Positions 8,639 to 39,473 of a stretch of 39,509 nucleotides of DNA are shown piece after piece. Numbering within the stretch: the first letter of the stretch is position 1; each line of letters opens with the position of its first letter. A model generated the notes under the pieces. That model did no database searches and was not told the origin of the DNA. It worked only from the letters and a program-made list of their open reading frames with translations. Origin of the DNA: an uncultured bacterium (lineage in GTDB: Bacteria > Muiribacteriota > UBA6191); assembly GCA_964650625.1 (NCBI GenBank), contig CAZYUV010000002.1:1-39509 (forward strand). Reading direction: 5' to 3'. The position numbers and the translations under genes were made by a program.

Positions 8639-8793
8639 TTGAGCCCTAGTGTAGTTTTACTTGCAGTAATTTCCAATACGGAACATCTTATTATTTTGTT
8701 CTAAATTGGATCCAATTTTTTATCGCATCCTCCTAAATCCCATTCCTACATAATTTTAGGTACAATAAATAAAGACTTTAACTCATAGACAAC

Positions 8794-10635: not shown

Positions 10636-10859
10636 CAATTGAATTCTTCTTGCTTCTATTTTTAGCTACAGTACAGACTATAAATGTCTTCAGAGTGTAA
10701 TATCGACAGGGAAAATGGGGGCTTACAGCCAAAAAATCAAGCTGAAGAACTTGATATTCACCTAAATTATGATGTAATCCGGTATCACTATTATGCTTTG
10801 CTTGCTTTAGATATTGTGATATTTGTTCTTGGAAATTCTAGAAACAATAAGTGATTAAC

Positions 10860-11855: not shown

Positions 11856-12000
11856 ATCAAATTATATTGATGACGAGTGAAATCTTTGGGATACATTACA
11901 AGCAAACCAAATTGTATATGCATGCAAATGGTATCCAGAATATCTCTCTAAGAAAGTCAATCAGATGAAAATTCACTTCCATGGATTACCTAATTAAAAC

Positions 12001-16246: not shown

Positions 16247-16407
16247 TATTAATCGCTAGCAAATCGGATAACAAAGATACTTGAGAGATTACTCAAACAA
16301 GATTATCTTTAGACGGCTGATCAAATTAGAACTATTATTTCACAACTACGAGTTATTAGATAAAAACTCACTGAAGCTGATATAAACAAATCAAAAGGAT
16401 TTAGTAA

Positions 16408-17046: not shown

Positions 17047-17269
17047 AGCCACAAATTTTAGCCTGTGCTTGGAGAAAATTTATAAGCAAATGATCACTAT
17101 AAATGGTCAATTATTTATTCAGGAAAACTTCAATTTTAAAAATACTATTATGGAAGTCAAAGCCTTAAAATCTCCAGAAAAGTATTTGACTCATTTTCAT
17201 ATTAGCTGAGACCTAATCGTAAGTGCTAAAATTTGAATATTCGAAGGACTGAACTATAGGAAATTAATT

Positions 17270-18760: not shown

Positions 18761-20722
18761 CTAGTCTTCCCAGCTTTCAGGTTCACCTTCCCAGTCCTCT
18801 TCTGCAAACTCGGCGTCAGCTTGCTCTGTCATAGTATCTTGAATATTACCAGTCTCCGAGTTAGTTGTATCAGATAACAGCGTCGTACTATCCGTTGATT
18901 TTACCTCTAAATTTTCCTCAACCGGTGGAGGCACTTCGTTACCCTCACTATCTATCCAAATCTCCCGAGGTGGAGCGATTACAAGTGTTTTGGCACATCT
19001 AAAGCCAATTAGCTCTGATATTGTTTCGGGATTCCTCGCATCACGAATGTAAACAGGATCGGCCGGTTCAGCCCAAGCACCACCTCGTACCACACGTTTA
19101 GTACCCTCCTCAGGTCCTTTTGGATCCTTCGGTTCGGAGTTTGAATAATACTTCGCATCATAATAATCCGACACCCACTCCTTAACTCCACCAAACATAT
19201 TAAATAAACCCTCATCTGTGGAGCCAGCTTTGAAATAATCAACTTCATACAATGTGTCTTCACCAAGCCATTCAAATTCAAATTGAGCAAGTTCAGGGTC
19301 AGGCGAAACATCTCCCCATGGATAGGGTCGCCCTTCGATACCCCGAGCGGCAAATTCCCATTCGGCTTCTGTTGGTAAGCGCTTGTCAAAATATTCACAA
19401 TATTCTTTCGCTTGATTCCAAGTGATGTTCATGATTGGTTGATTCATTATTCGATCAGTAGGTTTACCGTTCTTCCATAGATTATATTCAGGCTTATCAT
19501 TTAATCCAGGAGGGGCTGTTTTAGACTTCTCAACATAATCTAAATAATTTTGATTACTAACCTCATACTGATCCATATAAAAATCCGATAATTCGACCTC
19601 GTGGACAGAACGACAATCAGAACTGCACTCTTCATCTCCCATTGAAAAACTTACCTCTTGAAACAAATACATATTTTCGATTTCAACGATTTCTGATTCA
19701 ACGAGAATTTTTCGTGGCTTTGAATCTATTACCTCCCGTACAACTTTTCGAGACTTTTTCTTCTTCTTTTTTCCAAGCAAGGAATTTTCATATGCCATAT
19801 AACCGCCACCAGCTATTAATGCGAGTAGCAAAAATCCCTTTAAACCTGCGCTATTACCGTTAGCAGTGTTCACAGCTTTGTGTTTAGTAAATGAACGTAG
19901 AGCACAAGCAAATTTCTTAAGATCGGGCCTTTTTTTTGATTTTTTATTCAAGGCCTTTAGTATTAATTTGTCAGCTGCCTTAGGAATACCCTCTAATCCT
20001 AAAGACTTTTCTTCTTTATGTTTTTGCTCTTGTTCATCTCCCAGAAAAGGCGTTTCTCCTTCAAGTAGCTGAAAAAATAAACTAGCCAATTGATAAACTA
20101 AAACTTGTTCAGTAACTTCCAGTGAGGCATTTTCCCAACGTTCAGGAGGAGCATAGTATTTTTGCTGACTCTTGGGATAAAAAGTAGAGTCATCTGCACT
20201 TCCTAAAAGAGGTAAATGCATTACAACAAGATGACCCTCTTTCGTGTACATTAGATCCTGCGGAAAAATTTCAGAAACTGCCATCCCCTCTAAAAGAGCA
20301 CGGCGGTAAATCATTGCAGCTTCAGATATTAGAAAAGCGGCCTCATTAATTGGTACTTGATGATCAATAGAATTTGCTTGCAAACGTCTTGCAGTAATTC
20401 CATTAGGTCTTTCTAAAACTACTACAGGAATTGGATTTTTAATTCCTTCGATACTTACTTTCAGAATCTCCAGAACTTTCTGAAAACCATCGAAGGATAA
20501 GTCACGATATTTCAGAAATTCATTTTCGAAAACCGCAAAGTCTTCATCGGATTTAATTGTTACACCGTGATACACCCTCAGATAAACTCTGGATTTATCA
20601 TCACGATTTAGACCCATATAAATAGTTCCACCCGGAAAATCTCGCATTGGGTCAAGTACACGGTATCGTTTCTGAAAAACCGATTTTCTGGAGACAATTT
20701 TATCTTTGTTTTGCTGCTTCAT
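18761..20722 (-). CDS. Membrane protein: N-terminal degenerate Ser/Thr-kinase-like (pseudokinase) domain, one TM, C-terminal FGE-sulfatase domain, acidic tail
   Basis: The kinase-like fold retains YYAPPERW (APE region). It has VYLRV in place of VAIK, VSEIFPQDLMY in place of HRDLKPxN, and HLPLLG in place of DFG. The TM is GFLLLALIAGGGYMAY. FGE motifs are RLPTEAEWEFAARG, YPWG, RVVRGGAW and IGFRCAK. Confidence 0.6.
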   Translation of the reverse strand: MKQQNKDKIVSRKSVFQKRYRVLDPMRDFPGGTIYMGLNRDDKSRVYLRVYHGVTIKSDEDFAVFENEFLKYRDLSFDGFQKVLEILKVSIEGIKNPIPVVVLERPNGITARRLQANSIDHQVPINEAAFLISEAAMIYRRALLEGMAVSEIFPQDLMYTKEGHLVVMHLPLLGSADDSTFYPKSQQKYYAPPERWENASLEVTEQVLVYQLASLFFQLLEGETPFLGDEQEQKHKEEKSLGLEGIPKAADKLILKALNKKSKKRPDLKKFACALRSFTKHKAVNTANGNSAGLKGFLLLALIAGGGYMAYENSLLGKKKKKKSRKVVREVIDSKPRKILVESEIVEIENMYLFQEVSFSMGDEECSSDCRSVHEVELSDFYMDQYEVSNQNYLDYVEKSKTAPPGLNDKPEYNLWKNGKPTDRIMNQPIMNITWNQAKEYCEYFDKRLPTEAEWEFAARGIEGRPYPWGDVSPDPELAQFEFEWLGEDTLYEVDYFKAGSTDEGLFNMFGGVKEWVSDYYDAKYYSNSEPKDPKGPEEGTKRVVRGGAWAEPADPVYIRDARNPETISELIGFRCAKTLVIAPPREIWIDSEGNEVPPPVEENLEVKSTDSTTLLSDTTNSETGNIQDTMTEQADAEFAEEDWEGEPESWED

Positions 20723-23765: not shown

Positions 23766-26714
23766 CTATTCTTGATCAAAAATTAATTTTGTCTGGCAAC
23801 CTTTTCCCGAGACTATTTGAATACTTAAAACGCCGCCATGTTGCTCTAGTATGCGTTTGGCTACGTGAAGGCCCAAACCTAATCGCCCTTTGTGCGTACT
23901 AAAGCCTGCATTGATTACTTCATTACCCATATTTTTAGAAGAATTTGAAGAATTATCTTGAAAAACAAATTCCAGTTTCTTTCGTTTGCTTTTCTCGTCA
24001 TTAAATACTCTCGATTTGAGTTTCAGCGCTCCACCTTTACCTAGAAACTCTAGATGGTTTTCCAAGACTAAAATAAAAGCTTTTTTAAGAACAGACCAAT
24101 CGGCAGAATGTAAGAATTTAACTTCTTTCACATCCTTAGAAAACTTTATAGATTTCGGATCAATATTGCTGTTGATTCGCTCTGAAAGGTTAAAACAAAT
24201 CTTCGGGATTTTATTGTAAACGTCTTTGATAACAGCTTGCTGTAAAGGGATAGTTTTTTTAGAAACCTCAATAGCGTCATTACTTAATTTGATTAGTTCT
24301 AAACTGTACTCAAGTTTCTCAAACAAACGCTTAATATGAACCTTTAATCCGTCCGGACTTACGGTTTGCATGGATTTTAAATTATTCGCCGCTTCACGTA
24401 GAAGACCTGTTGCATCGGGAGTACTCAAACTAGTATTGTCCATTACATTCGTCTTGCCAAAACTTTTTAGTTCCGTCAGAATTTCATGAAATACCTTTGT
24501 ATCAAAAGACTGACTAATTCGACTAGTTGACTCCAAGCCAGTCGAAATACCGGCTTCATTAGCTTCCATTTTATCTAATTCGGCTTCCATAGAAACTACG
24601 TCATCCGATAAAAAGAACGGTGGTATCTGGCCGGGCATTCCAGGAACATACTTACCTTCTTTCTTACGATTATAAAGTTCTTTTGTAGTAAGTTTCCACG
24701 TACCTGATCTGATTAATATTTCATCAATCAAATCTTCCTCTCCTTCGGTCGCAGCCAGTTTATCTTCATTCACCGTCAGACGATTTACTTCCTCTATTGA
24801 AGAAACACCTTGCAGCGCACGAATTAAACCTGAATCACGCAATGACATCATGCCATCTTCCTTGGCAATGCGCTTTAGTTCTATGGTAGATAAACCCTTA
24901 TTAACCGCAATCGCCATATTTTCAGTCATTTTCATGACTTCATGAATAGCTAAACGTCCCTTGTATCCATTACCAAGGCATTCTTTGCAGCCCTTGCCTT
25001 TGTATAATGACAAGTTATCGATATTCATACCAGAGGCACCATCGAAAGCCATTAAACGATCATTAAAACCCGTAGCAATCAACTCGCGCTTCGAAAGCTT
25101 ATCAATTTGTTTACAATTTTCGCACAGACGACGCATTAATCTTTGAGCAAGAATTACTCGAACTGCTGAAGTAATTAAAAATCTATCAATCCCCATATTT
25201 AGCATTCTACCTATGGATTCGACAGCAGAATTGGTATGTAGGGTAGACAACACAAGATGACCAGTTAAAGCTGCTTTTAATGCAATTTGAGCGGTTTCCA
25301 TATCCCGAATTTCACCAATTAAAATAATATCCGGATCTTGACGCAAAAAAGCCTTAAGCACTTTACCAAAAGTCATGCCTATTTCGGGAATACATGCAGA
25401 CTGTGCTATACCGGGCAAATCATATTCAACTGGATCTTCGGCTGTTTGAATGTTTACTGAAGGTTTATTCAGTGAAACTAGAGAAGAATACAAAGTCGTA
25501 GTTTTACCTGATCCAGTAGGTCCCGTTACCAGTAAGATTCCATTGGGAGAGTCCAATCCATACTGCAACAAATCATAATTTTCTTTATCTAAGCCGAGTG
25601 AATTCAATCGTAACCGACTACCTGATTGATCAAGAATTCGCATAACAATTTTCTCGCCCCAAGATACTGGACACGTGGACACACGAACATCAACAACTTT
25701 ACCTTTCAGCGACATTCTGAACTTGCCATCTTGGGGCATGCGGACTTCCGAAATTTCAAGTCCTGCCATCACCTTTATTCTAGAAGAAATAGGACCGGCC
25801 AGCTTAGATGGAAAAGGACCAGCACCTTTACGTAACATGCCATCAATTCTGTATCGCATAAGCAACTGGTGCTCAAATGGTTCAATGTGGATATCTGAGG
25901 TGCCTTGCTCAACTGCTGAAGTCACCACTTTGTTCATTAGCGTTTTAATGGGAGCGGAGTTTTCATCGAAGTCTTCACTTGCCATTTCTTCCAAAGTACT
26001 ATCTTCCGCTTCATCGATCATTTCAATCAAACTGTCCGCCATGGCACCTTCACCATAGTGAGCTTCATAGCTATTCTTGAAATCTTTCTCTGAAACGATC
26101 ATAGGAACCACGCGTAATCCCGTAGACATTTCAATATCATCTACAACTAAAATGTTCTGAGGATCTACCATGGCTACAAAAAGTTGATTATCCTCAAGTT
26201 TCACCGGCATAACCATGTGTTTCTGAGCCATTTTTGCTGGAATTTTATCCATAATCAGTGGGTCTGGAGGTGTTTTAGAAAGCTTAATATAAGGAATCAT
26301 TAGCTGCTCGCCTACTGACTTAGCTAATTCATCATCAGTTACTATGCCTAGTTGAACTAATGCCTCGCCGATCCGAACACCATGAGCAACAGAAAACTCT
26401 AACGCTCCTGCAAGTTGTTCTTCAGTGAGAACACCAGCAGCCCGTAAAATATCTCCAAGTCGGCGCTTTTTGCCCGTCCTTTTTTTCTGAATCTTTTTTA
26501 TAGCTGCTTGGTCTTGAAGAGCAATTTTTAATTGAGGTTGTGATATATGGCCAAGCTCTAAAAGAACTAGACCTAATGGCTCCTCTCGATTTTGAGAAAC
26601 TTCGAGAGCTTCTTCCAACTGGTCTATGCTTATAAAGCCTTTATCTTTAAGAATTTCCCCGAGTGGAATTTCTTTATTTTGTAATTGCTGCCTAAGGTGT
26701 CGATCTATTTCCAT
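23766..26714 (-). CDS. PilB/GspE/MshE-family secretion ATPase with duplicated N-terminal MshEN modules and a C-terminal histidine-kinase-like (HATPase_c/GHKL) domain
   Basis: Walker A is VTGPTGSGKTTT. Other core motifs are DPDIILIGEIRDMETAQIA, GHLVLSTLHTNSA and the tetra-Cys motif CENC...CKEC. Four LGxxLxxxGxIxxxxLxxxLxxQ motifs lie in aa 17-137. The C-terminal ~330 aa end in N-box-like LVLENHLEF and G2-box GRLGLGLHVAKRILEQHGG. Confidence 0.8.
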   Translation of the reverse strand: MEIDRHLRQQLQNKEIPLGEILKDKGFISIDQLEEALEVSQNREEPLGLVLLELGHISQPQLKIALQDQAAIKKIQKKRTGKKRRLGDILRAAGVLTEEQLAGALEFSVAHGVRIGEALVQLGIVTDDELAKSVGEQLMIPYIKLSKTPPDPLIMDKIPAKMAQKHMVMPVKLEDNQLFVAMVDPQNILVVDDIEMSTGLRVVPMIVSEKDFKNSYEAHYGEGAMADSLIEMIDEAEDSTLEEMASEDFDENSAPIKTLMNKVVTSAVEQGTSDIHIEPFEHQLLMRYRIDGMLRKGAGPFPSKLAGPISSRIKVMAGLEISEVRMPQDGKFRMSLKGKVVDVRVSTCPVSWGEKIVMRILDQSGSRLRLNSLGLDKENYDLLQYGLDSPNGILLVTGPTGSGKTTTLYSSLVSLNKPSVNIQTAEDPVEYDLPGIAQSACIPEIGMTFGKVLKAFLRQDPDIILIGEIRDMETAQIALKAALTGHLVLSTLHTNSAVESIGRMLNMGIDRFLITSAVRVILAQRLMRRLCENCKQIDKLSKRELIATGFNDRLMAFDGASGMNIDNLSLYKGKGCKECLGNGYKGRLAIHEVMKMTENMAIAVNKGLSTIELKRIAKEDGMMSLRDSGLIRALQGVSSIEEVNRLTVNEDKLAATEGEEDLIDEILIRSGTWKLTTKELYNRKKEGKYVPGMPGQIPPFFLSDDVVSMEAELDKMEANEAGISTGLESTSRISQSFDTKVFHEILTELKSFGKTNVMDNTSLSTPDATGLLREAANNLKSMQTVSPDGLKVHIKRLFEKLEYSLELIKLSNDAIEVSKKTIPLQQAVIKDVYNKIPKICFNLSERINSNIDPKSIKFSKDVKEVKFLHSADWSVLKKAFILVLENHLEFLGKGGALKLKSRVFNDEKSKRKKLEFVFQDNSSNSSKNMGNEVINAGFSTHKGRLGLGLHVAKRILEQHGGVLSIQIVSGKGCQTKLIFDQE

Positions 26715-28273: not shown

Positions 28274-29416
28274 ATGGTATTTGAGAGTTTCAACTGGCTA
28301 TTCTTTATTGCCTTAATTTTAGTACATTTTGTAGTTACAGGCCGAATTCGTTTGGGATTGTCGTATTTGAGTGGCATTTATTTCGTTTACGCCTATTCTC
28401 CAACAAGTCTAGCAATTTTATCTCCGGTGGCATTATTAATTATTGGGCCGTACCTATTTCAAGAATCTGAAACTCGAAATCAATTCTACGGTTTCATGTG
28501 GCTCGCCATGTGGGGGCTATACTATCTATTCGTTAGTAATCATAACTTTGATCAAAGGGAATACTTCCCATATGAAATTTTAGTGTTAGGAGCATACAAT
28601 CTGGCAAGGTTCTATCATGTATTTAATGATTTAAATTTCCTACGATACAGAGGACCAAAATGGGATGAAATTTTAGCCTATTTATTTTTTCCTCCAATCC
28701 TTTTTTGTGGTCCACTCGAGAAAATTCAAGAGTTTTTGAAATTTTACAAGAATCACGCATGCTATAAATCAATTGACTACAAAGGCTCTGCTAAGCTCCT
28801 TAGTATTGCGGTTTTTCAGGGAGCTATCGCAGAATTCTGCTCAACCGCACTGACTCCCGATTTAGTAGATTTTTCAGAAATAACACTATTCCCACTTATA
28901 GTCTATGTCTTGGGCATAGGATGGGAAATTCATTTTAGATTAGCCTCATACATCAATTTTACGCGTGGTTTCGCTTGGCTAATGGGTTATCATTTTGAAA
29001 AACCTAATTTCCAAGCACCTTATTCGGCTAGATCTGTGGCGGGATTCTGGTCACGTTGGAATATGTCACTTTCCAGATGGACAAGAGAGTATCTTTTCTA
29101 CGGAAATATAGAAGACTTTAGTGCAAAAAGAGTTATCATCGTTCTCGGTTTATTTTGGTGTTTAGTGGGTATACTTCATGGCATAAGTTGGCATTACTTC
29201 ACTTGGGGGCTTTTAATGGGCTCAACTATACTCTTTAATTTTGCCTACATTTATGCCCGCTATCACTGGGATTGGTTAATGAAAGTGGATGCTCAATTCA
29301 TACCTTTATCAGTCAAAAGAGCAGTCACAATTGTATGGATTCATGCATCTTGTATTTTGCTGGTTCCCGAATGCGAAGATATAATTAAGTCATTACATAG
29401 AATTCTCTCTCTTTAG
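28274..29416 (+). CDS. MBOAT-superfamily membrane O-acyltransferase-like protein (short, divergent), paralogue A
   Basis: Polytopic membrane protein. FFPPILFCGPLEKIQEF, SVAGFWSRWNMSLSRWTREYLFY and LVGILHGISWHYFTWGLLMG align by eye with the AlgI/DltB motifs (FWRRWHISLSxWxRDYxY; GGLWHGAxWxFxxWGxxHG). Confidence 0.65.
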   Translation: MVFESFNWLFFIALILVHFVVTGRIRLGLSYLSGIYFVYAYSPTSLAILSPVALLIIGPYLFQESETRNQFYGFMWLAMWGLYYLFVSNHNFDQREYFPYEILVLGAYNLARFYHVFNDLNFLRYRGPKWDEILAYLFFPPILFCGPLEKIQEFLKFYKNHACYKSIDYKGSAKLLSIAVFQGAIAEFCSTALTPDLVDFSEITLFPLIVYVLGIGWEIHFRLASYINFTRGFAWLMGYHFEKPNFQAPYSARSVAGFWSRWNMSLSRWTREYLFYGNIEDFSAKRVIIVLGLFWCLVGILHGISWHYFTWGLLMGSTILFNFAYIYARYHWDWLMKVDAQFIPLSVKRAVTIVWIHASCILLVPECEDIIKSLHRILSL

Positions 29417-29446: not shown

Positions 29447-30478
29447 ATGGGTAAACTTCATAGATTTTTGTTGGGTTATAAAGAAGATCGCGGTGTTAAG
29501 GTTCTAAATTCTTTTAGTGACCTTAGTGAAGGTCCATATCGCGACTATGCCGCTGAGATTGTATTTACTTACATAAATAGTCTCAATAGAGCATTGATTT
29601 CACGATCAGCAGCCGAACTTCACAGGGAATATAACGAAAACCAGGCTCAAAAAGATTTAATACCTTTCCAGTTGGAAGCTAGTGCTATGGCTGCTGCTAT
29701 TAGTGATAATTATTTACCCTCCGTCGTTCCCTTAGTTAAGAGAGATTTTCTTGATAAATTAATAGAAGTCTTCGGTAACTCTTACAGAGAGATGATTTTA
29801 TTAGGTGCTGGACGCGGTATGGCAGAGATACCTAATTTTAACTTGCACACTATCGTAGCTAAGTATCCCCCAGAAGTACGCTGGTTAATAATGGATGGCT
29901 ACGGTTTCCAAAAGGGATTTTTTGAATTTCCGAAAAATCGAAATCAAATTTACATACCAAAATTTAAGTTCCCATATTTTCATAAAGCCTATGCACAAGG
30001 GTTAGGGAGGAGTTTAGGCTTTTATTTAGCTGATCAACCTAGCAAGATTAATAGCTACCTTGAACGAATCCAGGGAGCAGAAGCCTCAGACTTGTGGAGT
30101 GGTGTAGGTTCTGCAGTAGCGTTCTTAGGAGCATTAACTCCCGAGCAGTTTGATGAATGGTGTAATGCCAACTCTGAATATCGTCAATTCATAGCAGTGG
30201 GTTTGGCCCTTGCATGTCGATTACAAACACAATGCGGATGGCATTATGAAACAACAGATTCATATTGCAAAATGTTATGGGGTGTATCGGCACAAGAAAT
30301 AACAGATAGAGTCCTCAATCTGCAGGCACACCTCGAAGCAACCCAAATGCCTGATCAATCTTTATATGATGAGTATACAGACTATGAAAATCTTCGCGAT
30401 TTGATGAAAGAAGAATTTGTAGCTGGCACCTACTTGCAGAAGTTTCAGTCATCTTCCGCAGACGAATCTAGTGATTAA
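29447..30478 (+). CDS. Soluble hypothetical protein, DUF1702-like (assignment from memory of the family motif pattern)
   Basis: Repeated small-residue motifs occur at regular spacing: EASAMAAAISD, LLGAGRGMAEI, MDGYGFQKGFF, AQGLGRSLGFY, WSGVGSAVAFLG and IAVGLALACRL. It has no TM or signal peptide and starts 30 nt after paralogue A. Confidence 0.4.
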   Translation: MGKLHRFLLGYKEDRGVKVLNSFSDLSEGPYRDYAAEIVFTYINSLNRALISRSAAELHREYNENQAQKDLIPFQLEASAMAAAISDNYLPSVVPLVKRDFLDKLIEVFGNSYREMILLGAGRGMAEIPNFNLHTIVAKYPPEVRWLIMDGYGFQKGFFEFPKNRNQIYIPKFKFPYFHKAYAQGLGRSLGFYLADQPSKINSYLERIQGAEASDLWSGVGSAVAFLGALTPEQFDEWCNANSEYRQFIAVGLALACRLQTQCGWHYETTDSYCKMLWGVSAQEITDRVLNLQAHLEATQMPDQSLYDEYTDYENLRDLMKEEFVAGTYLQKFQSSSADESSD

Positions 30479-30505: not shown

Positions 30506-31645
30506 CTAAAATTGCAGACCAAAGCGCGCTAGAAGTCTTGCATATTGCTCATACCAGTCTGGATACCACAAGGCCCATGAAAATAATACGAATATATGAG
30601 TCATCACTATTTTTATAATATCCGGAAAATAGCGAGTATCATAAATCATCAACCACCTAAATTTTAGCTTTAGATATATATATAAGAAATTCAATAAAAC
30701 TGCAGCACCATGCAAAAGTCCCCATAAGAAGAAACCCGAAGTCATATCTTTCATTATCCCAATAAGAACAAAATATATAAAAACGGCTGCCGCGAAATCC
30801 CGGGCTCGAAATTGAGTTAAAGATCTATAAAACAAATGACGTTTTAACCATCTAGTCAATGAAATATTGTAGTGAGTCCAAAAGCTCGCAACACTCTTAA
30901 CTTTATGAACTTGGTGAAAATTTGGCGTATTAAATGGATAACCCATCATAAATGACCATCCTCTTACAAAATCAAACCAAGAGGATAAACTCAACATTAG
31001 AGTGAAACCCAAAAGATATATTTTCATGAGCAATATGGTAGCTGATGCTTTATCAAAATCAATATCAGCTTCCACAATAGCCATTCGAATTATATATACA
31101 ATGCTTCCCTTCAGAATTCCGTAAACCCAAAGCTTTAAACCCGTTAACCATTGTCGAGGTTGCTGGTTAGTATGGTATTCGCGGAATTCTTGATATCTCT
31201 CCAATGGCCCACAGAACATAATGGGTGGATACCAGAGATAAGCGATAATATTCCAAATATCATCTCGATTAATAATAATAGAGCGTCTGTAAGCCACCAC
31301 ATGCATATATCGGAGTGTATTGATACCGAAAGCTGAAAATGCAAATGGAATGATATCTAAGCGACCTTCCCAAGCGTATAGCCAATCCCAGAAATAAATA
31401 ACGGAAATCAATAAAACAAGTAATAAAGTAGAGTGGTTGGATAAGACAAATCGGACAATAGGGCGAAAAGCCAACAAAACCAAGGAGGTACTACCTACTA
31501 ACATCAACCAAGCTGGTGGACAGAAATAAAATACGAAAACAGAGCCCGTTAATACAAATCCAATGGATCGAGATGCACCAGCTGGCAAAAAACTAGCCAA
31601 AAAAGCCAAGAAAAAAATATACCAGTTCTCTAAATGTATTACCAA
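30506..31645 (-). CDS. MBOAT-superfamily membrane O-acyltransferase-like protein, paralogue B (inverted relative to A)
   Basis: Same length and motif order as 28274-29416: LWYPPIMFCGPLERYQEF, SVASFWTHYNISLTRWLKRHLFY and LIGIMKDMTSGFFLWGLLHGA. Confidence 0.65.
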   Translation of the reverse strand: MVIHLENWYIFFLAFLASFLPAGASRSIGFVLTGSVFVFYFCPPAWLMLVGSTSLVLLAFRPIVRFVLSNHSTLLLVLLISVIYFWDWLYAWEGRLDIIPFAFSAFGINTLRYMHVVAYRRSIIINRDDIWNIIAYLWYPPIMFCGPLERYQEFREYHTNQQPRQWLTGLKLWVYGILKGSIVYIIRMAIVEADIDFDKASATILLMKIYLLGFTLMLSLSSWFDFVRGWSFMMGYPFNTPNFHQVHKVKSVASFWTHYNISLTRWLKRHLFYRSLTQFRARDFAAAVFIYFVLIGIMKDMTSGFFLWGLLHGAAVLLNFLYIYLKLKFRWLMIYDTRYFPDIIKIVMTHIFVLFSWALWYPDWYEQYARLLARFGLQF

Positions 31646-31865
31646 AAGTCGTACCCGCCATCCAATCTATCGAGATTACAGACAAGTTCTGATAGAAAAA
31701 GATTATTTTTGTCACCTATCTGCCGTGGAACAAAGGAATCTGTTCCAATATAATCTTTCAAGCGTTCAAATGTATAATTTCTGCACCAAATTGCAGCAAG
31801 GAACTGTTCTTTGTCAAACCCCAAATCAGAGGTTTATAATGATCACCTGCTTGAAGGAGGTTTCC

Positions 31866-33101
31866 ATGCAGCAGGTTTATATAGGGCCATCTCACTCAAT
31901 GTCTTGGCACGGTTTCGATAATGAAAAAACATTTGAATCGATTTTCGAGGGGAAAAGCCCCTTGAGCGGCATTCTAAATGTTATCGAAGAAGCTCAAAAA
32001 AATAATGTTCCTGGTAGAATTCCATGGGATTTATTCAAAGATTTCGATATTGACAACAAATGCGTCAAAAATGGACCCGTAGAAGCTCGGTATGCATACA
32101 TTTGTACGAAAATGCTTCTCGAAAAATTCCCACAGATCCTAGACTACCGCAAAGACATGGGACTGTATGTTGGAACGATGAATAATTATTACGGATTAGT
32201 CGGTCTCAGAAATGGATATCGAGTGTGTGTAAACGAGCAATTTACTTACGATAAACGTACATTTGAAAGTAAGATAGGTTTGGGCTTTTCTTTTGTACAT
32301 CCCATGGTACCTGTATATAAAATACCCAACAATTGTGTCGCAAACATAGCATTAGATTGGGAATTAAGAGGTGCCAACGCTAACTACTTCGGTGAAGATT
32401 CATCGTCTACAGCCTTACACGAATCTTATTTAAAAATACGAGCAGGTCGCTTGAAACAAACGCTCACCGTAACCTCAAATCATTTGTTCCTAAACTATCT
32501 GGATTTTCTATTTACAGACTTGCCAACTCTCACGAAGAAAGAGCCCGCCAAGCTAATTCCAGAGAAAGATAACTTTTTCTTTCCTTCAGAATGGGCCTCG
32601 TCCTATCTTCTTTTCAACGAAGAACAGAGCGATACGCTTGGAATAGAAAGACAAGCACAAATTCTCGCATCTCATCAAACGAGCTTTCAAGGTGTATATA
32701 TGCGCAGGAATTTGAAGAAGGAGACCGTGGAACAAGTAGTAAAAGCTTGTCTTAAAAAAGCTCAGTTAGAGTTCTCAGATTTGGATCTCGTAGTTTTTGA
32801 CAATGTTGATAAAGACAAATCTCAAATCGCAGCTTTAACAGAACTTCGAGGAAATGGTAAAACTAAGCTACTGACACCTTCATTATTCATCGGACATCCA
32901 ATATGCGCTAATGGAGGCGCAATGATTTCGACAGCTCTCATGTGTTTAAAATATCAGAGCGTATTTTCTTCTTATCTAGAAAGTATCCCGGAAAAACCTG
33001 AACTCACATCTAAAAAAGAAGCTCTCAATATAAAATATGTCCTAGTCTTATCACAAGGGCTCAATAACAGCTTACATGGCTTAATTCTGGAGAAAGCATA
33101 A
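31866..33101 (+). CDS. Ketosynthase-fold protein lacking the Cys-His-His triad (chain-length-factor/KS-beta-like)
   Basis: The start is re-assigned to ATG 31866, in frame with the 31563 ORF. A GAAGGAGG RBS at 31853-31860 lies 5 nt upstream. The longer ORF would overlap the MBOAT-B start on the opposite strand. KS-like MQQVYIGPSHSMSWHG N-terminus. GEDSSSTALHES stands where KS enzymes have xTACSSSLxA, VVFDNVDKD where they have HGTGT, and IGHPICANGG near the C-terminus. Confidence 0.6.
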   Translation: MQQVYIGPSHSMSWHGFDNEKTFESIFEGKSPLSGILNVIEEAQKNNVPGRIPWDLFKDFDIDNKCVKNGPVEARYAYICTKMLLEKFPQILDYRKDMGLYVGTMNNYYGLVGLRNGYRVCVNEQFTYDKRTFESKIGLGFSFVHPMVPVYKIPNNCVANIALDWELRGANANYFGEDSSSTALHESYLKIRAGRLKQTLTVTSNHLFLNYLDFLFTDLPTLTKKEPAKLIPEKDNFFFPSEWASSYLLFNEEQSDTLGIERQAQILASHQTSFQGVYMRRNLKKETVEQVVKACLKKAQLEFSDLDLVVFDNVDKDKSQIAALTELRGNGKTKLLTPSLFIGHPICANGGAMISTALMCLKYQSVFSSYLESIPEKPELTSKKEALNIKYVLVLSQGLNNSLHGLILEKA

Positions 33102-33838
33102 TGGATAAAACATGCCTAATTGTAGGTGGCTCGCGGGGTATAGGAAAAGCCACGGCTGAACGATTCCTCAAAGATGGTTGGAAAGTAGGAATCTCTTACA
33201 ACAGTACTCAACCCGATTGGATTGAAAGTTATCCCGAAGAACAACGTTGGGCAGGCCAACTTGATGTAACAAATGGGGAACAAATTCCTGATTTTTTAAG
33301 CCAATATAAAGAATTCAGTGGAAAAAAGATCGACGTTTTTATCTACAATACCGGAATCACTATCGATGCCTTAACCATACATGGAAAAAATGAGGAATTC
33401 GATAAAGTACTCAGCACCAATTTACGCGGTGCTTATATCTTCCTTCGGGAGGTTGGTCATTTCATGTTCTTTAAGAAACGGGGTAAACAGTTCTACATTT
33501 CATCTGTAGCTGCAAAACGGGGTGGCCGTGGGCAATTAAGTTATGCGGCCTCGAAAGCGGGACTTGAAGCGTTAGTTCGAGTTGGTGCTCAGGAGTTTTC
33601 GCGAGCGGGGGTAATGATAAATGGAGTCGCTCCCGGGGTTACTGAAACTGATATGACAGAACAAGTGATGGAATTTGTCAAAGGTAACAAGAAAGGTGAT
33701 GGATTATTCGACAGAATAGCGATGCGTAGAACGGCAAAACCGGAAGAAATCGCTAACTTTTTATTTTCTCTGTCGCAAGAAGAAATAACTTACATAACTG
33801 GTCAAACGTTCAATATTGATGGCGGCTACATGCTCTGA
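33101..33838 (+). CDS. fabG: SDR-family 3-oxoacyl-ACP reductase (FabG-like ketoreductase)
   Basis: VGGSRGIGKA (TGxxxGxG), NTGI (NNAG-like), and the catalytic S...YAASKAGL (YxxxK). The start ATG overlaps the upstream TAA (TAATG at 33099-33103). Confidence 0.85.
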   Translation: MDKTCLIVGGSRGIGKATAERFLKDGWKVGISYNSTQPDWIESYPEEQRWAGQLDVTNGEQIPDFLSQYKEFSGKKIDVFIYNTGITIDALTIHGKNEEFDKVLSTNLRGAYIFLREVGHFMFFKKRGKQFYISSVAAKRGGRGQLSYAASKAGLEALVRVGAQEFSRAGVMINGVAPGVTETDMTEQVMEFVKGNKKGDGLFDRIAMRRTAKPEEIANFLFSLSQEEITYITGQTFNIDGGYML

Positions 33839-33849: not shown

Positions 33850-36800
33850 ATGCAAGATTTCCTTAACATCGAAATGACTGACGAGCAGATCATGGATCTG
33901 CTGGTAGAAGCTTTGCAAGATATAACAGGTTTTGATGAAAATATAACCAAAGAAACACTTCTAATAGATGAACTCGGATTAGATTCGTTAGGTTTCCTAG
34001 ATTTGTTTTTCACTATACAAACATCGATCCAACGGGAAGTAACCAACGAACAAATGCGTAATCTCATTCTTGAGGAGCTTGATCTCGACACTGATCCCAA
34101 TGTTGCCAAATTATCTGAAGGCGAAAAAGATCGAATCGCCTATCCTAGACTGAAAGTTCAGAATTTTTTCAACATCGTTAAAAAACAATTGAATCCTGAA
34201 CTAGCTGGCATTGATCTTGAAGCCACATCGGATCGTATTTTTGAACCTCAACAACTTGAATCGTTTTTGCAGGCAAATTTCGAACAAATTAAGCAAGACA
34301 AAATTTCCGAGCAAATTCAAGCTAACAATATCACTGATCCCAGAATGCAGGAGATTGTTCGAAACTCATTTGATGCTATTGATCCTGATAAAATGCAATC
34401 ACTTTTTGCTGATAAAAAGCTTATTGCTAACGTGGTAAAAAAATATCTAAAAGATCGTATGAATCTGGATGACCCCGAAAATTTGCAGCGTTTTTTAATG
34501 GGAGAGAACAAAAATCAACTTCAAGTTAAAGCACTTCTTCAAAGCGATGATAAAGGCCGTAGTATTTTCGATATGTTTTTAGATCAAAACAAGAGCAAAA
34601 TTTTTGATCTTTATCTTGATGGAGATGAGCAAGATGTTCTCAAAGACACAATTATTCGCAAAACACTGGAAGAACGCAAAGCAGAGGTAATTAGCGAGTT
34701 AAGTTCTAGCCCAGATCAAAATCTGGTGATGAAAATTTTTGATCGTCGACGGAAAGACATAATGGAAGTTATGGTTGAACGCAGTCGTCAACAGATTTTA
34801 GACAAAGCTCTCGAAGTCAAACGTGAGCTATTTGAGTCTGAATTTAATAATCAAGAGGCAATTAAGGATTTTAATCAATTTGTTTGGGATAACTTAGCTA
34901 ATATCACCCCCGAAATTATGAAGGGGGAGATGCAGTTAATGGAAGAAGAAATTTTATCTCAAGGCTTTCAGCTACTTTCACAAGACAACGATGAAGATAC
35001 TGATCTTAAAGTTATTTTTGAAGAAGAGAAAGAAGCTCTGTTTGCAGATATTATCGAACGGGAAAAATCCACAATTTATAAACAGATGGTACTCTCAGAC
35101 GAAGAAAAAGAAAGTCTCATGGAGCAACTGGTTAACGATGACAAGGTGGGTCTCTTTAACCAATTCATATCTGAAAATAAAGTGAGTCTTAAAAGAGAGG
35201 TGCAACAGCGTGGGCTACTAGATGAAAATAGCGATTTTGCAACGCAATTACTTGCCGATGAGAGCGTTCAACAAGATCTTATGAAAACCTTAATCGATAG
35301 TCAGATTGGTAGCGTTTTCGAAGAAGAGGTTAATCGACAAAGTGAATTGGTTGATGATGCTGAGGTTATAGCATTTCTGAAAGACACTTTCCTCACAAAT
35401 GAGTTTCGCCAAGATAAAATCCAAAGTGCTATTGGTATGGGAAATGTACAGGGTGATCTTGTAGAAGAATTCATGAAGAACAACTTCGATCGTATCGCCA
35501 TGGAAGAAACTCAAAGATTACTTGCTGATAAAGAACTCCGTAATCAATTAGTTCAGGACTATATCAAAGAGAATTATGACCCCATGGAGGCAATGCAACT
35601 CAATGATCCCGAAAAAATGAAAGAGCTGCAGCAAAAAATTACCGAAAAATACATGCAAGATAATCTTGATGAAATTATTTCTCGTTACATGAACGATTAC
35701 ATGAACGAAATGATGGATGCCATTCCAGAAGAAGAAATAGAGTTAGATGGTGATGTTCAAGAAGAATTCATGAAGAAATTTATGGCTCGGATGGAAGATG
35801 AAGAGGAAACAGAAGAAACACCAAAGCCTAGCACAGTAGTTGAACGATTTATAGAAACTTACGGACTAACTGACCCCATGATTCAAGTATTCGTTGAAAA
35901 CAACTTCGACGATATTTTTGGAATTATCAAAAGAGTTTCTGGACTACAGGTTAACAATGAAGCCATTGAACAATTCGTTGTCTCAGAATTTCCGCTAAAG
36001 ATCGCTTTGTATTTTCACAGTATCATTGATGACCTCGACTTCGACCACGATGTACGCCAGACCTACACCAAGTACTTCGTAGAAAATAATATGAACGAAA
36101 TCATGGAAGTTACCATGCAGCGTCAATTCGAATTCATGCTCGGAGAAGAGTTCGACCTTGACTGGGATCGATATACACATGAGCTTAACGAATGTGTTAA
36201 AGATGAACTTAAACGAATGCATAAAGAACTCGACCCGAAGGAAGTAGAATCAAAATTAGATCAATTATTCAAAGGATTAAAATATGATTGGAATCTTTTT
36301 CTAGATGTATTAAAAAATGACATCAATGATGAAGAGCGAAACAAAATTCTTCTTTATTGGTTGAAAGACATCAACGATATAGAGCAAATTCAAATTCAAT
36401 ATATTAGAGATTTCCTACAGGATAAGGAAGAAGAAATCCGATCACACCCTCTTGGTCAGTGGATAGATTTACTAGAAGGAAAAGCAACTGCAAAAGAAGT
36501 GACGGAGCAGTACGAAACCGCCTTCAGAAGTCATCTTATTAGTAATTTCGAAGAAATTCTTAAGGATTTTGACCCTACTAGTAATACCAAAATTGATCTC
36601 CAACTTAAGAAGGCTATGACTGAGCAATGTATTCGTATTTTTCTTCCAACAAGCATTAGTGTTGTAATTAATTCACATATTGATGAACTACGCGATTACA
36701 TAACTCAATTTCCACTGCCACCACCTAGAACGATTAATGATCTTCTAGACTATCTGCTGCCTGAATCTACCAAGGCTACCTATTCTGATATTCGTACAAG

Positions 36801-37722
36801 ACTTAGTAGTAAGTTTAAGTCGCTTGCTAAGAAGCATGAGATTTCTAAAGATTTGTTAATGATTTTTATTTATCACTACAGAAAAGATTACCGTAGATTA
36901 ATTCAAGAACTTTGTGAATTAATCATCTCGCAATATATAAAAATTGGTAGAGAGCATATGATCGGACTGATTACTAACTTTAGTTGGGAGAAACAGTCAA
37001 ATTTAATTATGGGCCTTTTGAAGAATGAGTTATCAGAAGAAGAAATTCTGATTGCTTCGATGTCATCCTTTCTAAAGGATAATCAACGCAAAATGGATAA
37101 ATTCACCACAGATGAAATTTTTGCAATGTTTGAAGGAGATAAATTTTTAAAATTTATGGAAGATATGGTGCAAGAAAACATTGATAACGTGCTTGCCAAA
37201 TCTGAAGAAGCTGAATTCGAACTAACAGATTATGTTTCTCCGAAGAAGTACTCACAGCTAAAATATATTACTGATTTTTTACAGGAATCGCATATGAGTC
37301 AGATCAATGGATTCTTTGGGCATTTACAGCATCGTCTGAGCCTTAAACCGAAAATGTTCCTGGAATTGGGCGAAGAGATCGCCTCTGAGTTAATTGTAAA
37401 TCTCAAAAAAGAGGAATTGGGCCTAAAGGACCGGCTCATTGCATACACCCAACGTAAAGTCATGGAAGATTACGATTTTATGATCATGGAACGGGTCGCA
37501 GAAAAGCTTGAGGATCAACAATTTATTGACAAGCTAGTAATGGATATTCGAGATGTATACAGTAAACGAAATGTATTTAGATTATTTAGAACAGGAATAC
37601 GAGCTGTGGTTCTTCAAACTGAGTCTATAGACTGGGTTCATGAACGAAATCTAATACAAAAAGTATCCTATGAGTTATTGGATGAAATCATCGCTGAAAT
37701 GGCACAGGGTATAAAGGTCTAA
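33850..37722 (+). CDS. 1290-aa protein: N-terminal acyl carrier protein domain fused to ~1200 aa acidic, helical, motif-repeating region of unknown function
   Basis: ACP signature LIDELGLDSLGFLDLFF, with the phosphopantetheine Ser46 codon TCG at 33985-33987. The remainder has no TM and is very E/D/K/N/Q/I/M-rich, with recurring xxNN[FLM][DE]xI motifs. Confidence 0.7.
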   Translation: MQDFLNIEMTDEQIMDLLVEALQDITGFDENITKETLLIDELGLDSLGFLDLFFTIQTSIQREVTNEQMRNLILEELDLDTDPNVAKLSEGEKDRIAYPRLKVQNFFNIVKKQLNPELAGIDLEATSDRIFEPQQLESFLQANFEQIKQDKISEQIQANNITDPRMQEIVRNSFDAIDPDKMQSLFADKKLIANVVKKYLKDRMNLDDPENLQRFLMGENKNQLQVKALLQSDDKGRSIFDMFLDQNKSKIFDLYLDGDEQDVLKDTIIRKTLEERKAEVISELSSSPDQNLVMKIFDRRRKDIMEVMVERSRQQILDKALEVKRELFESEFNNQEAIKDFNQFVWDNLANITPEIMKGEMQLMEEEILSQGFQLLSQDNDEDTDLKVIFEEEKEALFADIIEREKSTIYKQMVLSDEEKESLMEQLVNDDKVGLFNQFISENKVSLKREVQQRGLLDENSDFATQLLADESVQQDLMKTLIDSQIGSVFEEEVNRQSELVDDAEVIAFLKDTFLTNEFRQDKIQSAIGMGNVQGDLVEEFMKNNFDRIAMEETQRLLADKELRNQLVQDYIKENYDPMEAMQLNDPEKMKELQQKITEKYMQDNLDEIISRYMNDYMNEMMDAIPEEEIELDGDVQEEFMKKFMARMEDEEETEETPKPSTVVERFIETYGLTDPMIQVFVENNFDDIFGIIKRVSGLQVNNEAIEQFVVSEFPLKIALYFHSIIDDLDFDHDVRQTYTKYFVENNMNEIMEVTMQRQFEFMLGEEFDLDWDRYTHELNECVKDELKRMHKELDPKEVESKLDQLFKGLKYDWNLFLDVLKNDINDEERNKILLYWLKDINDIEQIQIQYIRDFLQDKEEEIRSHPLGQWIDLLEGKATAKEVTEQYETAFRSHLISNFEEILKDFDPTSNTKIDLQLKKAMTEQCIRIFLPTSISVVINSHIDELRDYITQFPLPPPRTINDLLDYLLPESTKATYSDIRTRLSSKFKSLAKKHEISKDLLMIFIYHYRKDYRRLIQELCELIISQYIKIGREHMIGLITNFSWEKQSNLIMGLLKNELSEEEILIASMSSFLKDNQRKMDKFTTDEIFAMFEGDKFLKFMEDMVQENIDNVLAKSEEAEFELTDYVSPKKYSQLKYITDFLQESHMSQINGFFGHLQHRLSLKPKMFLELGEEIASELIVNLKKEELGLKDRLIAYTQRKVMEDYDFMIMERVAEKLEDQQFIDKLVMDIRDVYSKRNVFRLFRTGIRAVVLQTESIDWVHERNLIQKVSYELLDEIIAEMAQGIKV

Positions 37723-37725
37723 ACT

Positions 37726-38169
37726 ATGCGCTACATATTTTTACAACAATTCGAAATTCAGGATGACGGGGATACAATTAAAGGAACGCTTCCCGTTACC
37801 AAGGATTGGGAAGTTTTTCAAGATCACTTTCCAGGATTTCCGATAATGCCCGGGGCTTTGATACTGGAGACCATGGCTCAACACTGCGTTGCTTTGATGC
37901 TCGAGCATAAGCAAGGTGATGATCCGGTCGTTCCTACACTAATTCAGGTAGATAGGGCTAAATTTAAAGAACCAGTATTCCCCGATTGTACATTGGATAT
38001 AGAAGTCAAAAAGGAAATTGCTATGTATCCAAACTTTAAATTTTCTGCTAAAGCTAGCGTTAACAATAGAGTTGTCAGTGAAGCTCGACTAACTATGGCC
38101 TTTAGAGATGTTGGTATGGGGCAAGGTCTAGATTTTATGGGTTTCTTTTTCAAAGGAATGCAAAAGTAG
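37726..38169 (+). CDS. FabZ/FabA-like hot-dog fold 3-hydroxyacyl-ACP dehydratase
   Basis: FQDHFPGFPIMPGALILETMAQ matches the FabZ HFPxxPxxPGVLxxEAxAQ active-site region. 147 aa. It starts 3 nt after the upstream stop. Confidence 0.8.
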   Translation: MRYIFLQQFEIQDDGDTIKGTLPVTKDWEVFQDHFPGFPIMPGALILETMAQHCVALMLEHKQGDDPVVPTLIQVDRAKFKEPVFPDCTLDIEVKKEIAMYPNFKFSAKASVNNRVVSEARLTMAFRDVGMGQGLDFMGFFFKGMQK

Positions 38170-38177: not shown

Positions 38178-39473
38178 ATGAACAGAGTTTTTGTTACAGG
38201 CTATGGCTTATGTTGTGGAAACGGTTTAGATACTAATGAGTACTGGGACAACTGTTCCTCACTGAAAACAGGTTTACGTGTACATGAGCCCTGGTCACAT
38301 TTAGACATAAAAATTGTAGGGCTTGTACCAGAAGAACGCTTCACGGAAAAAGAGAAAAAGGAAGTCGAATATTTCAGGGCTCGAAGAACAGTTTTTACTC
38401 GAAGAGCGCTCACAGAGGCTCTAGAAATGGCGGGAGTAAATCCTCAAGATGAAGAGGAAGTAGGCGTGTTTTTGGGCGTAGACTTTTATTCGGGTGACGA
38501 ATATTTTCTTTATGGTGTTATTAATTACTATCCTCAAGGCAAAGGCGAAGATCGGTGGGAAGAGTTTGATTTAGGCTACAGCATATCGCGCTTCTTAAAG
38601 ACCGGTATGAAAAAAGACATCAACACTGAATTATTGAAAAGCCAGACTTTTTTTGGTTATCAACCTTGGATCGATAGATATATAAGAAGTTTAATCAAAA
38701 AAGATGGTACCTCAAGAATCATCAATAATCTGTGCGTCAGTAGCGTCCAATCTATCGGAGAAGCTTTTCAATCAATCCAAAATGGCGACCAAGACGTTGT
38801 GATTTCTGGGGGTCTGGAGGAGTATTCCTTCGTGAGTGGTTTCACCTTCTCGAAACTAGGCGTTTACGTCAATGCCGAAGACCCTAGTGACTCTTGTACT
38901 CCCTTTGACGCAAGGCGAAAGGGTACAGTGCTGGGTGAAGGCGCAGGCATCCTTATTCTTGAATCTGAAGAACATATGAAAAAACGAGGCGCCACTCCAA
39001 TTGCTGAAATCTTAGGGTATTCCACAACCAATAATGTTTATCACGTAACTAATTCACCCACCCAAGGTGAGGGTTTAGCGCAATCAATGGAAGAAGCTCT
39101 TGAAGACAGCGGTTTATCTGAATCGGATATAGATGTCGTAGTTGCTCATGGAACGGGCACTTATGTAAATGATAGTTCAGAATGTAATGCCATAAATACG
39201 GTGTTACCTAGCAAACCATTGGTTCACTCAATGAAATCTTATGTGGGCCATACTTTATCAGCAGCAGGAGTTATTAATGTAATTACCGGTCTGTTAGAAA
39301 TGAAACACAGCTTCGTTCTTCCTACTCTATTCTTAAAAAAACCTGGTAAAAATTGTGATGTAAATCATGTAAAACCGGAAGGTGAAGAGAAAGAGGTGAA
39401 TGCGTTTTTAACTAATGCAGCCGGATTCGGTGGCTTCAACGGTACACTAGTGGTAAAAAAGGCCGATGAATAA
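38178..39473 (+). CDS. Beta-ketoacyl-ACP synthase (KAS I/II-type, catalytically complete)
   Basis: Active-site NNLCVSSVQSIGEA (Cys186 codon TGC at 38733-38735), VVAHGTGTYVNDSSE (His 1), KSYVGHTLSAAG (His 2) and a C-terminal NAAGFGGFNGTLVV. An AGGTGG RBS lies upstream. Confidence 0.85.
   Translation: MNRVFVTGYGLCCGNGLDTNEYWDNCSSLKTGLRVHEPWSHLDIKIVGLVPEERFTEKEKKEVEYFRARRTVFTRRALTEALEMAGVNPQDEEEVGVFLGVDFYSGDEYFLYGVINYYPQGKGEDRWEEFDLGYSISRFLKTGMKKDINTELLKSQTFFGYQPWIDRYIRSLIKKDGTSRIINNLCVSSVQSIGEAFQSIQNGDQDVVISGGLEEYSFVSGFTFSKLGVYVNAEDPSDSCTPFDARRKGTVLGEGAGILILESEEHMKKRGATPIAEILGYSTTNNVYHVTNSPTQGEGLAQSMEEALEDSGLSESDIDVVVAHGTGTYVNDSSECNAINTVLPSKPLVHSMKSYVGHTLSAAGVINVITGLLEMKHSFVLPTLFLKKPGKNCDVNHVKPEGEEKEVNAFLTNAAGFGGFNGTLVVKKADE

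Follow-up and report, generated by a model that had tools for sequence, protein, structure and literature searches.

Introduction

Fatty-acid, polyketide, and non-ribosomal peptide synthesis all have carrier proteins at their hub and, to our knowledge, those of dissociated (type II) systems are uniformly tiny proteins that meet their partners by transient contacts. Here we describe a gene that departs from this pattern. It lies at 33850-37722 (+) of a 39,509-nucleotide stretch of DNA from an uncultured bacterium (contig CAZYUV010000002.1 of GenBank assembly GCA_964650625.1), which is called the window throughout, and encodes a protein of 1,290 residues, called the long ACP below, in which an acyl carrier protein (ACP) domain is followed by a tail of ~1,175 residues. 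A conserved carrier ~15 times the normal size, whose private helical-repeat domain is under strong purifying selection, suggests that the pathway is organized differently, with a tail that might serve as an enzyme scaffold, a substrate chaperone, or a means of product delivery.

Several described systems resemble parts of this locus. Like the type II ACPs (AcpP, ApeE/ApeF of aryl-polyene synthesis, and AmcB of cispentacin synthesis), the long ACP has a predicted four-helix fold with a DSL serine starting helix II, and its gene lies among genes for a ketosynthase (KS), a KS partner resembling a chain-length factor (CLF), a ketoreductase (KR), and a FabZ/ApeI-like dehydratase (DH). Unlike them, it has 1,290 rather than ~80-100 residues and a hydrophobic helix II where theirs is acidic, and its PF00550 match falls below threshold. 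With AcpM, the meromycolate ACP, and RPA2022 (PDB 2kw2/3lmo), which we take to be an AcpXL-type carrier of very-long-chain fatty acids, it shares a similar DSLxFLD helix II and the presence of dedicated KS and DH genes next to the carrier gene. A C-terminal extension is found in AcpM as well, but the AcpM and AcpXL extensions run to tens of residues (flexible in AcpM), whereas the ~1,175 residues found here are predicted to be folded and are repetitive and highly conserved.

The carrier gene also stands next to genes for DltB-like MBOAT proteins, as in the DltC-DltB system; DltB receives its substrate from a carrier protein (PMC11035591). In contrast to DltC, however, the long ACP is encoded in a KS/KR/DH operon, is ~16 times larger, and has no universal MBOAT linkage. 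As neither a DltA-type AMP-binding enzyme nor DltD was found in the window and its MBOATs score far below the DltB cut-off, the long ACP is not a DltC-type carrier. The multi-ACP regions of polyunsaturated fatty acid synthases and the type I megasynthases likewise join an ACP to internal repeats on a large polypeptide, but the repeats of the long ACP are not ACP copies and no catalytic domains accompany them. The ARM-like repeats of MgtE_N and FliG are acidic and all-alpha like the tail, but the matches are weak, span only ~60 residues (590-655), and have no Foldseek support. MgtE_N remained sub-threshold at 20-21.6 bits (cut-off 25.9) in the homologues P0006 and P0008 and was matched by 4 of 13 family cores at E 1 or better, and FliG_N gave one weak match (14.7 bits, P0021). 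We treat this resemblance as a lead only.

The earlier note, made from the sequence of this DNA, knew of no characterized carrier with such an architecture, and our search of the literature on long, fused, or atypical ACPs, on ACPs associated with MBOAT and DUF1702, and on the phylum UBP17 likewise found no description of one. In sequence collections the proteins are named 'acyl carrier protein' (JGI) or 'hypothetical protein' (NCBI). We conclude that a known type of carrier has been joined to a new orphan domain within an uncharacterized cluster of an uncultured phylum.

The long ACP gene is embedded in a conserved synthase operon

The reading frame of the long ACP starts with ATG, encodes 1290 aa plus a stop codon, and contains zero internal stops in the list of open reading frames (ORFs). 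The KR stop codon (33836-33838) precedes its ATG by an 11-nt gap, and the DH ATG at 37726 follows 3 nt past its TAA codon. Upstream lie the genes for the CLF-like KS partner (31563-33101, +; 512 aa as listed, with weak N- and C-terminal ketoacyl-synt matches) and the FabG-like KR (33101-33838, +; adh_short_C2, 2.4e-43; TIGR01830, 1.2e-55). Downstream are the genes for the FabZ/ApeI-like DH (37726-38169, +; FabA domain, 2.4e-17; FabZ, 1.7e-23; homologues annotated as ApeI-like) and a FabF-like KS with a divergent N-terminal half (38178-39473, +). The CLF-like frame as listed overlaps the 5' end of a divergently transcribed MBOAT gene by 83 nt. Because its homologues have only 411-436 aa, translation probably starts ~230-300 nt further downstream.

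The gene order CLF-like, KR, long ACP, DH, KS was found by tblastn in all eight distinct loci, although the KR match was missing in L006 and L007 (L and P numbers denote homologous loci and proteins). The CLF-like gene is syntenic wherever the contig extends upstream of KR. The conserved order and the short intergenic gaps bear out the earlier proposal that the long ACP is the carrier of the flanking KS, KR, and DH, and its role as the dedicated carrier of the cluster is well supported. The operon contains no second ACP. Across the loci the cluster enzymes are 57-70% identical, whereas the tail is 30-40% identical.

When aligned to PDB entry 5sxo the KS retains the Cys-His-His triad (C186, AHGTGT, GHTL). 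The CLF-like protein aligns to the C-terminal half of the KS, and its first catalytic His has been replaced (VVAHGTGT in the KS versus VVFDNVD). As the triad is intact in one protein and the other has lost the first His and has only weak KS matches, the two form a KS/CLF-type pair and are predicted to be a heterodimer. Discrete KS, KS-like partner, KR, DH, and carrier genes give the locus the make-up of a type II (dissociated) KS/CLF cluster. Neither a thioesterase nor any other enzyme for offloading could be recognized in the core cluster, and no thioesterase was seen elsewhere in the window.

The N-terminal domain is predicted to be a divergent ACP

Profile and PF00550 matches, Foldseek, and sequence alignment assign residues 1-115 (33850-34194) to a four-helix ACP domain (~1-80) plus two conserved extra helices (~83-114). 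The predicted phosphopantetheine attachment site is Ser46 (codon 33985-33987), which lies within the invariant segment LGLDSLGFLDLFFTIQT and aligns to the DSL serine of solved ACPs. D45, S46, and L47 are invariant across 19 family sequences and align with the DSL of 8yg0 and 2kw2. In the same 19 sequences the pattern LxIDxLGxDSLGFLDLFFTxQTxIQxE, which takes in helix II, is invariant against an identity of 30-35% elsewhere. The extra helices carry their own invariant residues (S89, G91, E92, D94, R95, Y98, L101, F106, and Q113).

A family profile of residues 1-118 searched against PDB sequences returned 20 sequences, all of them ACPs (best E 1.1e-5), and a search with the single sequence gave ACP matches at E 0.004 and weaker. 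PF00550 matched 11 of 13 family members at E 0.1 or better, the best at 1.6e-5. Several NCBIfam ACP equivalogs, AmcB included, matched weakly (E 1e-3 to 5e-2). The AlphaFold2 (AF2) model of the domain has helices at 11-26, 46-60, and 66-76 and a short fourth helix at 83-86, and Foldseek aligned this predicted fold with many ACP structures (target-normalized TM 0.65-0.80, probability 0.9-1.0). Since the family profile finds only ACPs in the PDB, most members match PF00550, and the predicted fold is ACP-like, residues 1-115 read as a real but divergent ACP.

The domain had been called a normal, canonical type II ACP. The ACP assignment stands on the profile, PF00550, and fold evidence, but 'canonical' does not fit. 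Helix II is unusually hydrophobic (DSLGFLDLFFTIQ), and the closest PDB sequences are the 'specialized ACP' of Rhodopseudomonas palustris (2kw2/3lmo) and AcpM.

The tail is a repetitive, acidic, all-helical region

Three parts can be distinguished in the tail by alignment. Residues 116-465 (34195-35244) form a helical region in which 116-205 are conserved and 206-465 are a variable insert missing in short members of the family. The conserved core, residues 466-800 (35245-36249), contains ~40 residues that are invariant at an overall identity of 30-35%, and two tandem helical units of ~140 aa. The remainder, residues 801-1290 (36250-37719), is a predicted all-helical C-terminal domain whose 801-1210 segment varies or is missing in short members. 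Most members keep the final ~80 residues, from a conserved D-F at ~1209-1210 onward.

The composition of the long ACP (E 11.6%, L 10.9%, D 9.1%, I 8.3%, K 7.7%, Q 6.5%) gives a net charge of -110. The maximum Kyte-Doolittle mean over 19 residues was only 1.26, and thus the protein has no transmembrane (TM) segment, as the earlier note had stated. AF2 models were entirely helical both for residues 1-830 (22 sequences; mean confidence, pLDDT, 70; predicted template-modeling score, pTM, 0.34) and for residues 801-1290 (16 sequences; pLDDT 78, pTM 0.60).

No known domain was recognized in the tail. Pfam gave no significant match with the whole protein and five slices (E up to 10) or with all 13 cores and nine full-length homologues, and NCBIfam gave none either. 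Neither the whole protein nor the core profile matched the tail to a PDB sequence, and a Foldseek search of the PDB with both AF2 models found no tail match (best E 0.13-1.4 with TM ~0.1; best E for 801-1290, 1.4). The sub-threshold leads were MgtE_N and, at E 0.14, EF-hand/myosin light chain. The earlier note had recognized no enzyme motif in the tail, and in these searches the tail matched no known domain. Kinship of the tail with another protein of the cluster was also considered and rejected, as phmmer searches of the window, L013, and L001 ORFs found long ACPs only.

None of the ~40 invariant core residues is His, Cys, or Ser, and by their spacing (i, i+3/4, i+7) they lie mostly on helix faces. 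The polar ones are D547, E553, R556, R564, Q569, Y571, D577, E592, Q594, T598, Y601, D607, R612, Y613, Y617, E631, D635, and Q637. The last three belong to the invariant motif E631-x-x-G634-D635-x-Q637-x-x-F640-M641-x-x-F644 (residues 629-644, 35734-35781). This motif is located in an acidic linker (residues 619-660) that is the lowest-confidence part of the model (pLDDT below 50), and we infer that it is a candidate short docking motif.

The eight short motifs from which an ancient internal repeat had been proposed are all present, at residues 140, 170, 541, 601, 681, 743, 896, and 1106, and family-wide conservation is seen for the copies at 140, 541, 601, 681, and 743. A generalized form of the motif occurs 10 times versus 0.29 +/- 0.54 times in 2000 composition-preserving shuffles, a statistic that is flattering because the pattern was defined after viewing the sequence. 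Profile-profile comparison of 70-residue windows by hhalign, with 496 reversed-profile comparisons as the null (maximum score 21.5), gave five top self-match scores of 44, 36, 35, 33, and 31. The matches included 148-204 with 520-575 (score 44.3, probability 96%), 565-611 with 703-753 (35.9), 521-582 with 661-720 (31.2), and 730-791 with 842-904 (29.4). Their offsets define two tandem units of ~140 aa (~521-660 and ~661-800), an incomplete third copy, and a further incomplete copy nearer the N-terminus (~148-204), and each ~140-aa unit bears two copies of the motif hydrophobic-x-x-N-F-[DE]-x-I. The repeat proposal is thus upheld, with a period of ~140 aa and scores up to twice the null maximum. 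The possibility that the repeats are degenerate ACPs was rejected, as the ACP profile scored at best 16.7 against 70-aa windows of the tail compared with 18.0 for the reversed control.

The fusion is a rare but real protein family

Protein searches returned 22 homologues of 724-1359 aa, all sharing the N-terminus and the core. Full-length homologues (1,286-1,359 aa) diverge to 33% identity, and the short homologues (724-1,151 aa) have retained the ACP and core and, in most cases, the C-terminal end as well. When GTDB species were scanned at one genome each, the fusion turned up in eight genomes, all of them uncultured metagenome-assembled genomes (MAGs) labeled UBP17 or, by NCBI, 'Candidatus Cloacimonadota'. 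NORP72 has been assigned to the phylum UBP17 (PMC9426571) and flagged as probably outside Cloacimonadota (10.1101/2021.10.08.463351). The hosts of the long ACP are uncultured marine bacteria, and the family is very rare.

An exhaustive HMMER search of 1.84 billion representative proteins with the core profile (466-800) returned 13 hits. Because all 13 belong to the long-ACP family (members or fragments), the tail is, on the evidence of profile searches, an orphan domain that occurs nowhere but in fusion with this ACP. The core- and ACP-profile protein searches found neither a genuine unfused ACP of the family nor a stand-alone tail, and the nearest true small ACPs appeared in the ACP-profile search at E ~1e-4. 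The core is a new domain family that could be defined and deposited.

A sequencing or assembly error could in principle have joined a small ACP gene to a separate downstream gene, and the protein collection does contain apparent short 'ACP-only' products (P0028, 121 aa; P0029, 130 aa; P0033, 70 aa) that might be taken as the unfused form. P0028, the one product traced to its contig, comes from L014, a pilon-polished long-read contig (ena ERZ28548082 lagoon_1 contig_13022_pilon), where it departs from the family consensus in mid-helix just before an overlapping 1102-aa ORF. Across positions 2430-11877 of that contig frameshifts split the MBOAT, DUF1702, KR/CLF-like, and long-ACP genes, and the long ACP is broken into pieces of 121, 1102, 56, and 50 aa, with neighboring genes also broken or fused. 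P0028 is therefore itself a frameshift artefact of long-read assembly. P0029 and P0033 also leave the family sequence abruptly, and a frameshift is worth suspecting in any short 'ACP-only' database entry of this family. Eight species-level genomes have the fusion intact, as do ~20 protein clusters that stem from independent samples, and the conserved residues run continuously across 80-115. We therefore rejected an artefactual fusion, which we regard as extremely improbable. The claim that this is a single gene, with no stop or frameshift parting a small ACP from the downstream ORF, agrees with both the uninterrupted frame and the recurrence of the fusion.

Comparison with the 90%-identical L003 orthologue gave a nonsynonymous divergence (dN) of 0.064 over the whole gene. 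It was lowest in the ACP (0.026), followed by the core (0.040), and amounted to 0.06-0.10 in the remaining parts. Synonymous divergence (dS) was saturated in every segment, and thus dN/dS can be given only as an upper bound, roughly below 0.05. The low dN against saturated dS throughout indicates that purifying selection spans the whole tail.

A separate observation concerns L008, a locus of one short-tail lineage. Positions 4385-6949 include a small ORF whose ACP-like product shares 44% identity with the N-terminus of the long ACP over 80 aa, together with an extra KS and KR upstream, and thus the long ACP may not be the sole carrier in L008.

A ferritin-like gene accompanies the cluster and has a second copy, as does the long ACP gene, in the window's lineage

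In every locus that is long enough, the KS gene is followed directly by a gene encoding a ferritin-like protein of ~615 aa. By comparison with close relatives this gene would lie just beyond the 3' end of the window, out of view of the earlier note. The protein gives weak rubrerythrin/ferritin-like matches and has an invariant E...EXXH...E...EXXH pattern, suggesting a ferritin-like protein of the di-iron type. A profile search against PDB sequences found no solved relative. Its family comprises 17 database clusters and has the same contigs and narrow distribution as the long ACP.

In L003 a ferritin-like gene of ~613 aa (13386-15227) is followed by a second long ACP gene (15249-17366+). In L013 the segment 15612-22815 contains the ferritin-like gene and then further copies of both genes, which encode a long ACP of 1,151 aa and a ferritin-like paralogue of 622 aa. 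Both loci belong to close relatives. The window's lineage (L003, L013, and L014) is characterized by two long ACPs and two ferritin-like proteins, with the additional copies (for the long ACP a 1,151-aa protein of the P0012 type) encoded side by side. Both genes have therefore been duplicated in this lineage. Two to four small paralogous proteins (~185-209 aa) are encoded after the ferritin-like gene in L001 (16235-18538), L013 (22853-23482), and L009 (11197-12344). They consist of a soluble N-terminal half plus two or three predicted TM segments, and no family match was found for those of the three loci.

Accessory genes vary among lineages

Upstream of the CLF-like gene the window has an MBOAT gene (28274-29416, +), a DUF1702 gene (29447-30478, +; DUF1702, 1.2e-36), and a second MBOAT gene (30506-31645, -), an order that is the same in L003, L013, and L014. 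Both MBOATs show partial similarity to DltB (TIGR04091) at 71 and 50 bits versus a cut-off of 375 bits. An MBOAT gene lies within 10 kb of the long ACP in L001, L003, L008, L009, and L013, and none was seen within the available sequence of L004, L005, and L007. The earlier note had grouped MBOAT genes with KS, KR, and DH as a flanking set. Co-occurrence with KS, KR, and DH was found, but the MBOAT (and DUF1702) genes are accessory and do not lie within 10 kb of the long ACP in every relative.

DUF1702, which is confined to the window's lineage, is labeled an enediyne biosynthesis protein family in enediyne polyketide synthase (PKSE) cassettes (PMC7692728). The P0006 locus, of another lineage, has an UnbV_ASPIC/FG-GAP protein in its stead. 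These genes hint at polyene- or enediyne-type tailoring chemistry. Elsewhere in the window, a Trp-halogenase-family FAD enzyme is encoded at 8794-10635 (+), adjoining an S-adenosylmethionine-dependent methyltransferase gene with CMAS-like matches (10860-11855, -). A 59%-identical halogenase homologue occurs in L005 ~1.2 kb downstream of the ferritin-like gene and, given that position, the window halogenase may serve this pathway as a tailoring enzyme.

The genes together describe an uncharacterized biosynthetic cluster of an uncultured marine phylum that encodes KS, CLF-like, KR, and DH proteins, a novel protein of putative di-iron type, and MBOATs. Some members add a halogenase-like gene and proteins of the DUF1702 or UnbV type, which are known from enediyne cassettes. 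The cluster is small (~8-12 kb) and tractable by gene synthesis.

Possible roles of the tail

The reading we favor, to which we assign a probability of about one half, is that the long ACP is the dedicated carrier of a lineage-specific type II (KS plus CLF-like) synthase of the fatty-acid/polyketide kind and that its tail is a non-catalytic, helical-repeat scaffold or adaptor. Ser46 of the invariant DSL would presumably be phosphopantetheinylated and the growing chain it holds would be shuttled among the KS/CLF-like pair, KR, and DH. As the cluster has no enoyl reductase, that chain may stay unsaturated. The ~1,175-residue acidic, all-alpha tail, with its obligatory core (466-800) and optional helical inserts, would act in cis to keep lineage-specific partners beside the tethered chain. 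The preferred partner would be the ferritin-like protein, whose gene always comes after the KS and was duplicated along with that of the long ACP. It could oxidize or desaturate the chain, and a nearby DltB-like MBOAT might be another. We infer phosphopantetheinylation, the scaffold role, the identity of the partners, and the nature of the product. The choice of the ferritin-like protein as putative partner is the weakest step because all the genes of the cluster are co-inherited.

Several points weigh against this reading. KS, KR, DH, and the CLF-like protein are co-inherited just as faithfully, and thus the ferritin-like protein is not singled out. Neither a phosphopantetheinyl transferase nor an acyltransferase nor an enoyl reductase was seen in the window. 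PF00550 run on residues 1-100 scored 17.5 bits (E 0.0048) where the gathering threshold is 20.8, and so the check that the earlier note had proposed near the N-terminus falls short for this sequence, while 11 of 13 family members are matched at E 0.1 or better. Within the tail, conservation is highest at 540-620, a stretch modeled at a pLDDT of only 58-69. The alignments are shallow (22 sequences or fewer), and with a pTM of 0.34 the model of residues 1-830 does not fix the arrangement of the domains.

The tail might instead be a sheath or ruler, a chaperone for hydrophobic cargo that protects a very long or reactive (polyene-type) chain, or gauges its length, where the pocket of an ~80-aa ACP is too small. 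This would take to an extreme the role proposed for AcpM and AcpXL, the extended ACPs of very long chains. The kinship of the ACP domain to 2kw2/3lmo and AcpM, its hydrophobic helix II, the presence of KS, KR, and DH without an enoyl reductase, and the prediction of a compact helical domain for the C-terminal half (pTM 0.60) are consistent with this. However, Foldseek matched no lipid-binding fold, the tail is very acidic and hydrophilic, and the length of the protein varies almost two-fold (724-1359 aa) while the enzymes remain 57-70% identical, which fits a ruler poorly. We consider a sheath or ruler unlikely. Delivery to the membrane seems less likely again. By analogy with DltC and DltB, the tail would dock the loaded carrier on the DltB-like MBOATs or on the small proteins with two TM segments, and the acyl group would be passed into or across the membrane. 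Two MBOATs with partial DltB similarity are encoded just upstream in the window, the other loci named above have an MBOAT gene within 10 kb, and in L001, L009, and L013 the small TM proteins are encoded downstream of the ferritin-like gene. Yet MBOAT synteny with the ACP is not fixed (none was seen in the L004, L005, and L007 sequence), DltC docks on DltB without any tail, and no amphipathic or membrane-binding signature was detected in the tail.

We consider it very unlikely that the tail is an unrecognized enzyme, that is, a novel all-helical tailoring or offloading activity. The very strong conservation of polar core residues would suit an active site, and an offloading enzyme is missing from the core cluster. 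However, the tail shows no similarity to any enzyme family or fold, has no invariant His, Cys, or Ser, and combines repeats with gain and loss of helical inserts, as is typical of scaffolds. A scaffold is favored over an enzyme because of the repeats, the conserved helix faces, and the tolerated gain and loss of helices, and because invariants of catalytic type are lacking while a short motif is conserved in a flexible acidic linker.

A bolder version of the scaffold reading, which we think doubtful, is that the carrier itself organizes the synthase. The tail would assemble the KS/CLF-like, KR, DH, and putative di-iron enzymes and might enclose a long, reactive polyene-type intermediate. If so, this would be a carrier-scaffolded megacomplex, a third architecture between dissociated type II systems and fused type I megasynthases, and each paralogous long ACP would be paired with its own di-iron partner.

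Other genes in the window

An unusual fusion is encoded at 23766-26714 (-), where a 982-aa protein combines an MshEN domain and a type II/IV secretion ATPase domain (T2SSE, 1.6e-129) with a C-terminal HATPase_c domain of the histidine-kinase type. A second T2SSE ATPase is encoded at 17270-18742. FGE-sulfatase domains, which resemble the formylglycine-generating enzyme, occur in two large proteins encoded at 12272-16246 (+) and 18761-20722 (-), the former of which (1,324 aa) also has DUF4116 repeats and a TPR-like segment. The operon-like run at 1430-7989 (-) encodes a STAS-domain protein, a 667-aa protein of unknown type, a SpoIIE-type PP2C phosphatase (640 aa), and a 764-aa protein of unknown type, and looks like a partner-switching regulatory module.

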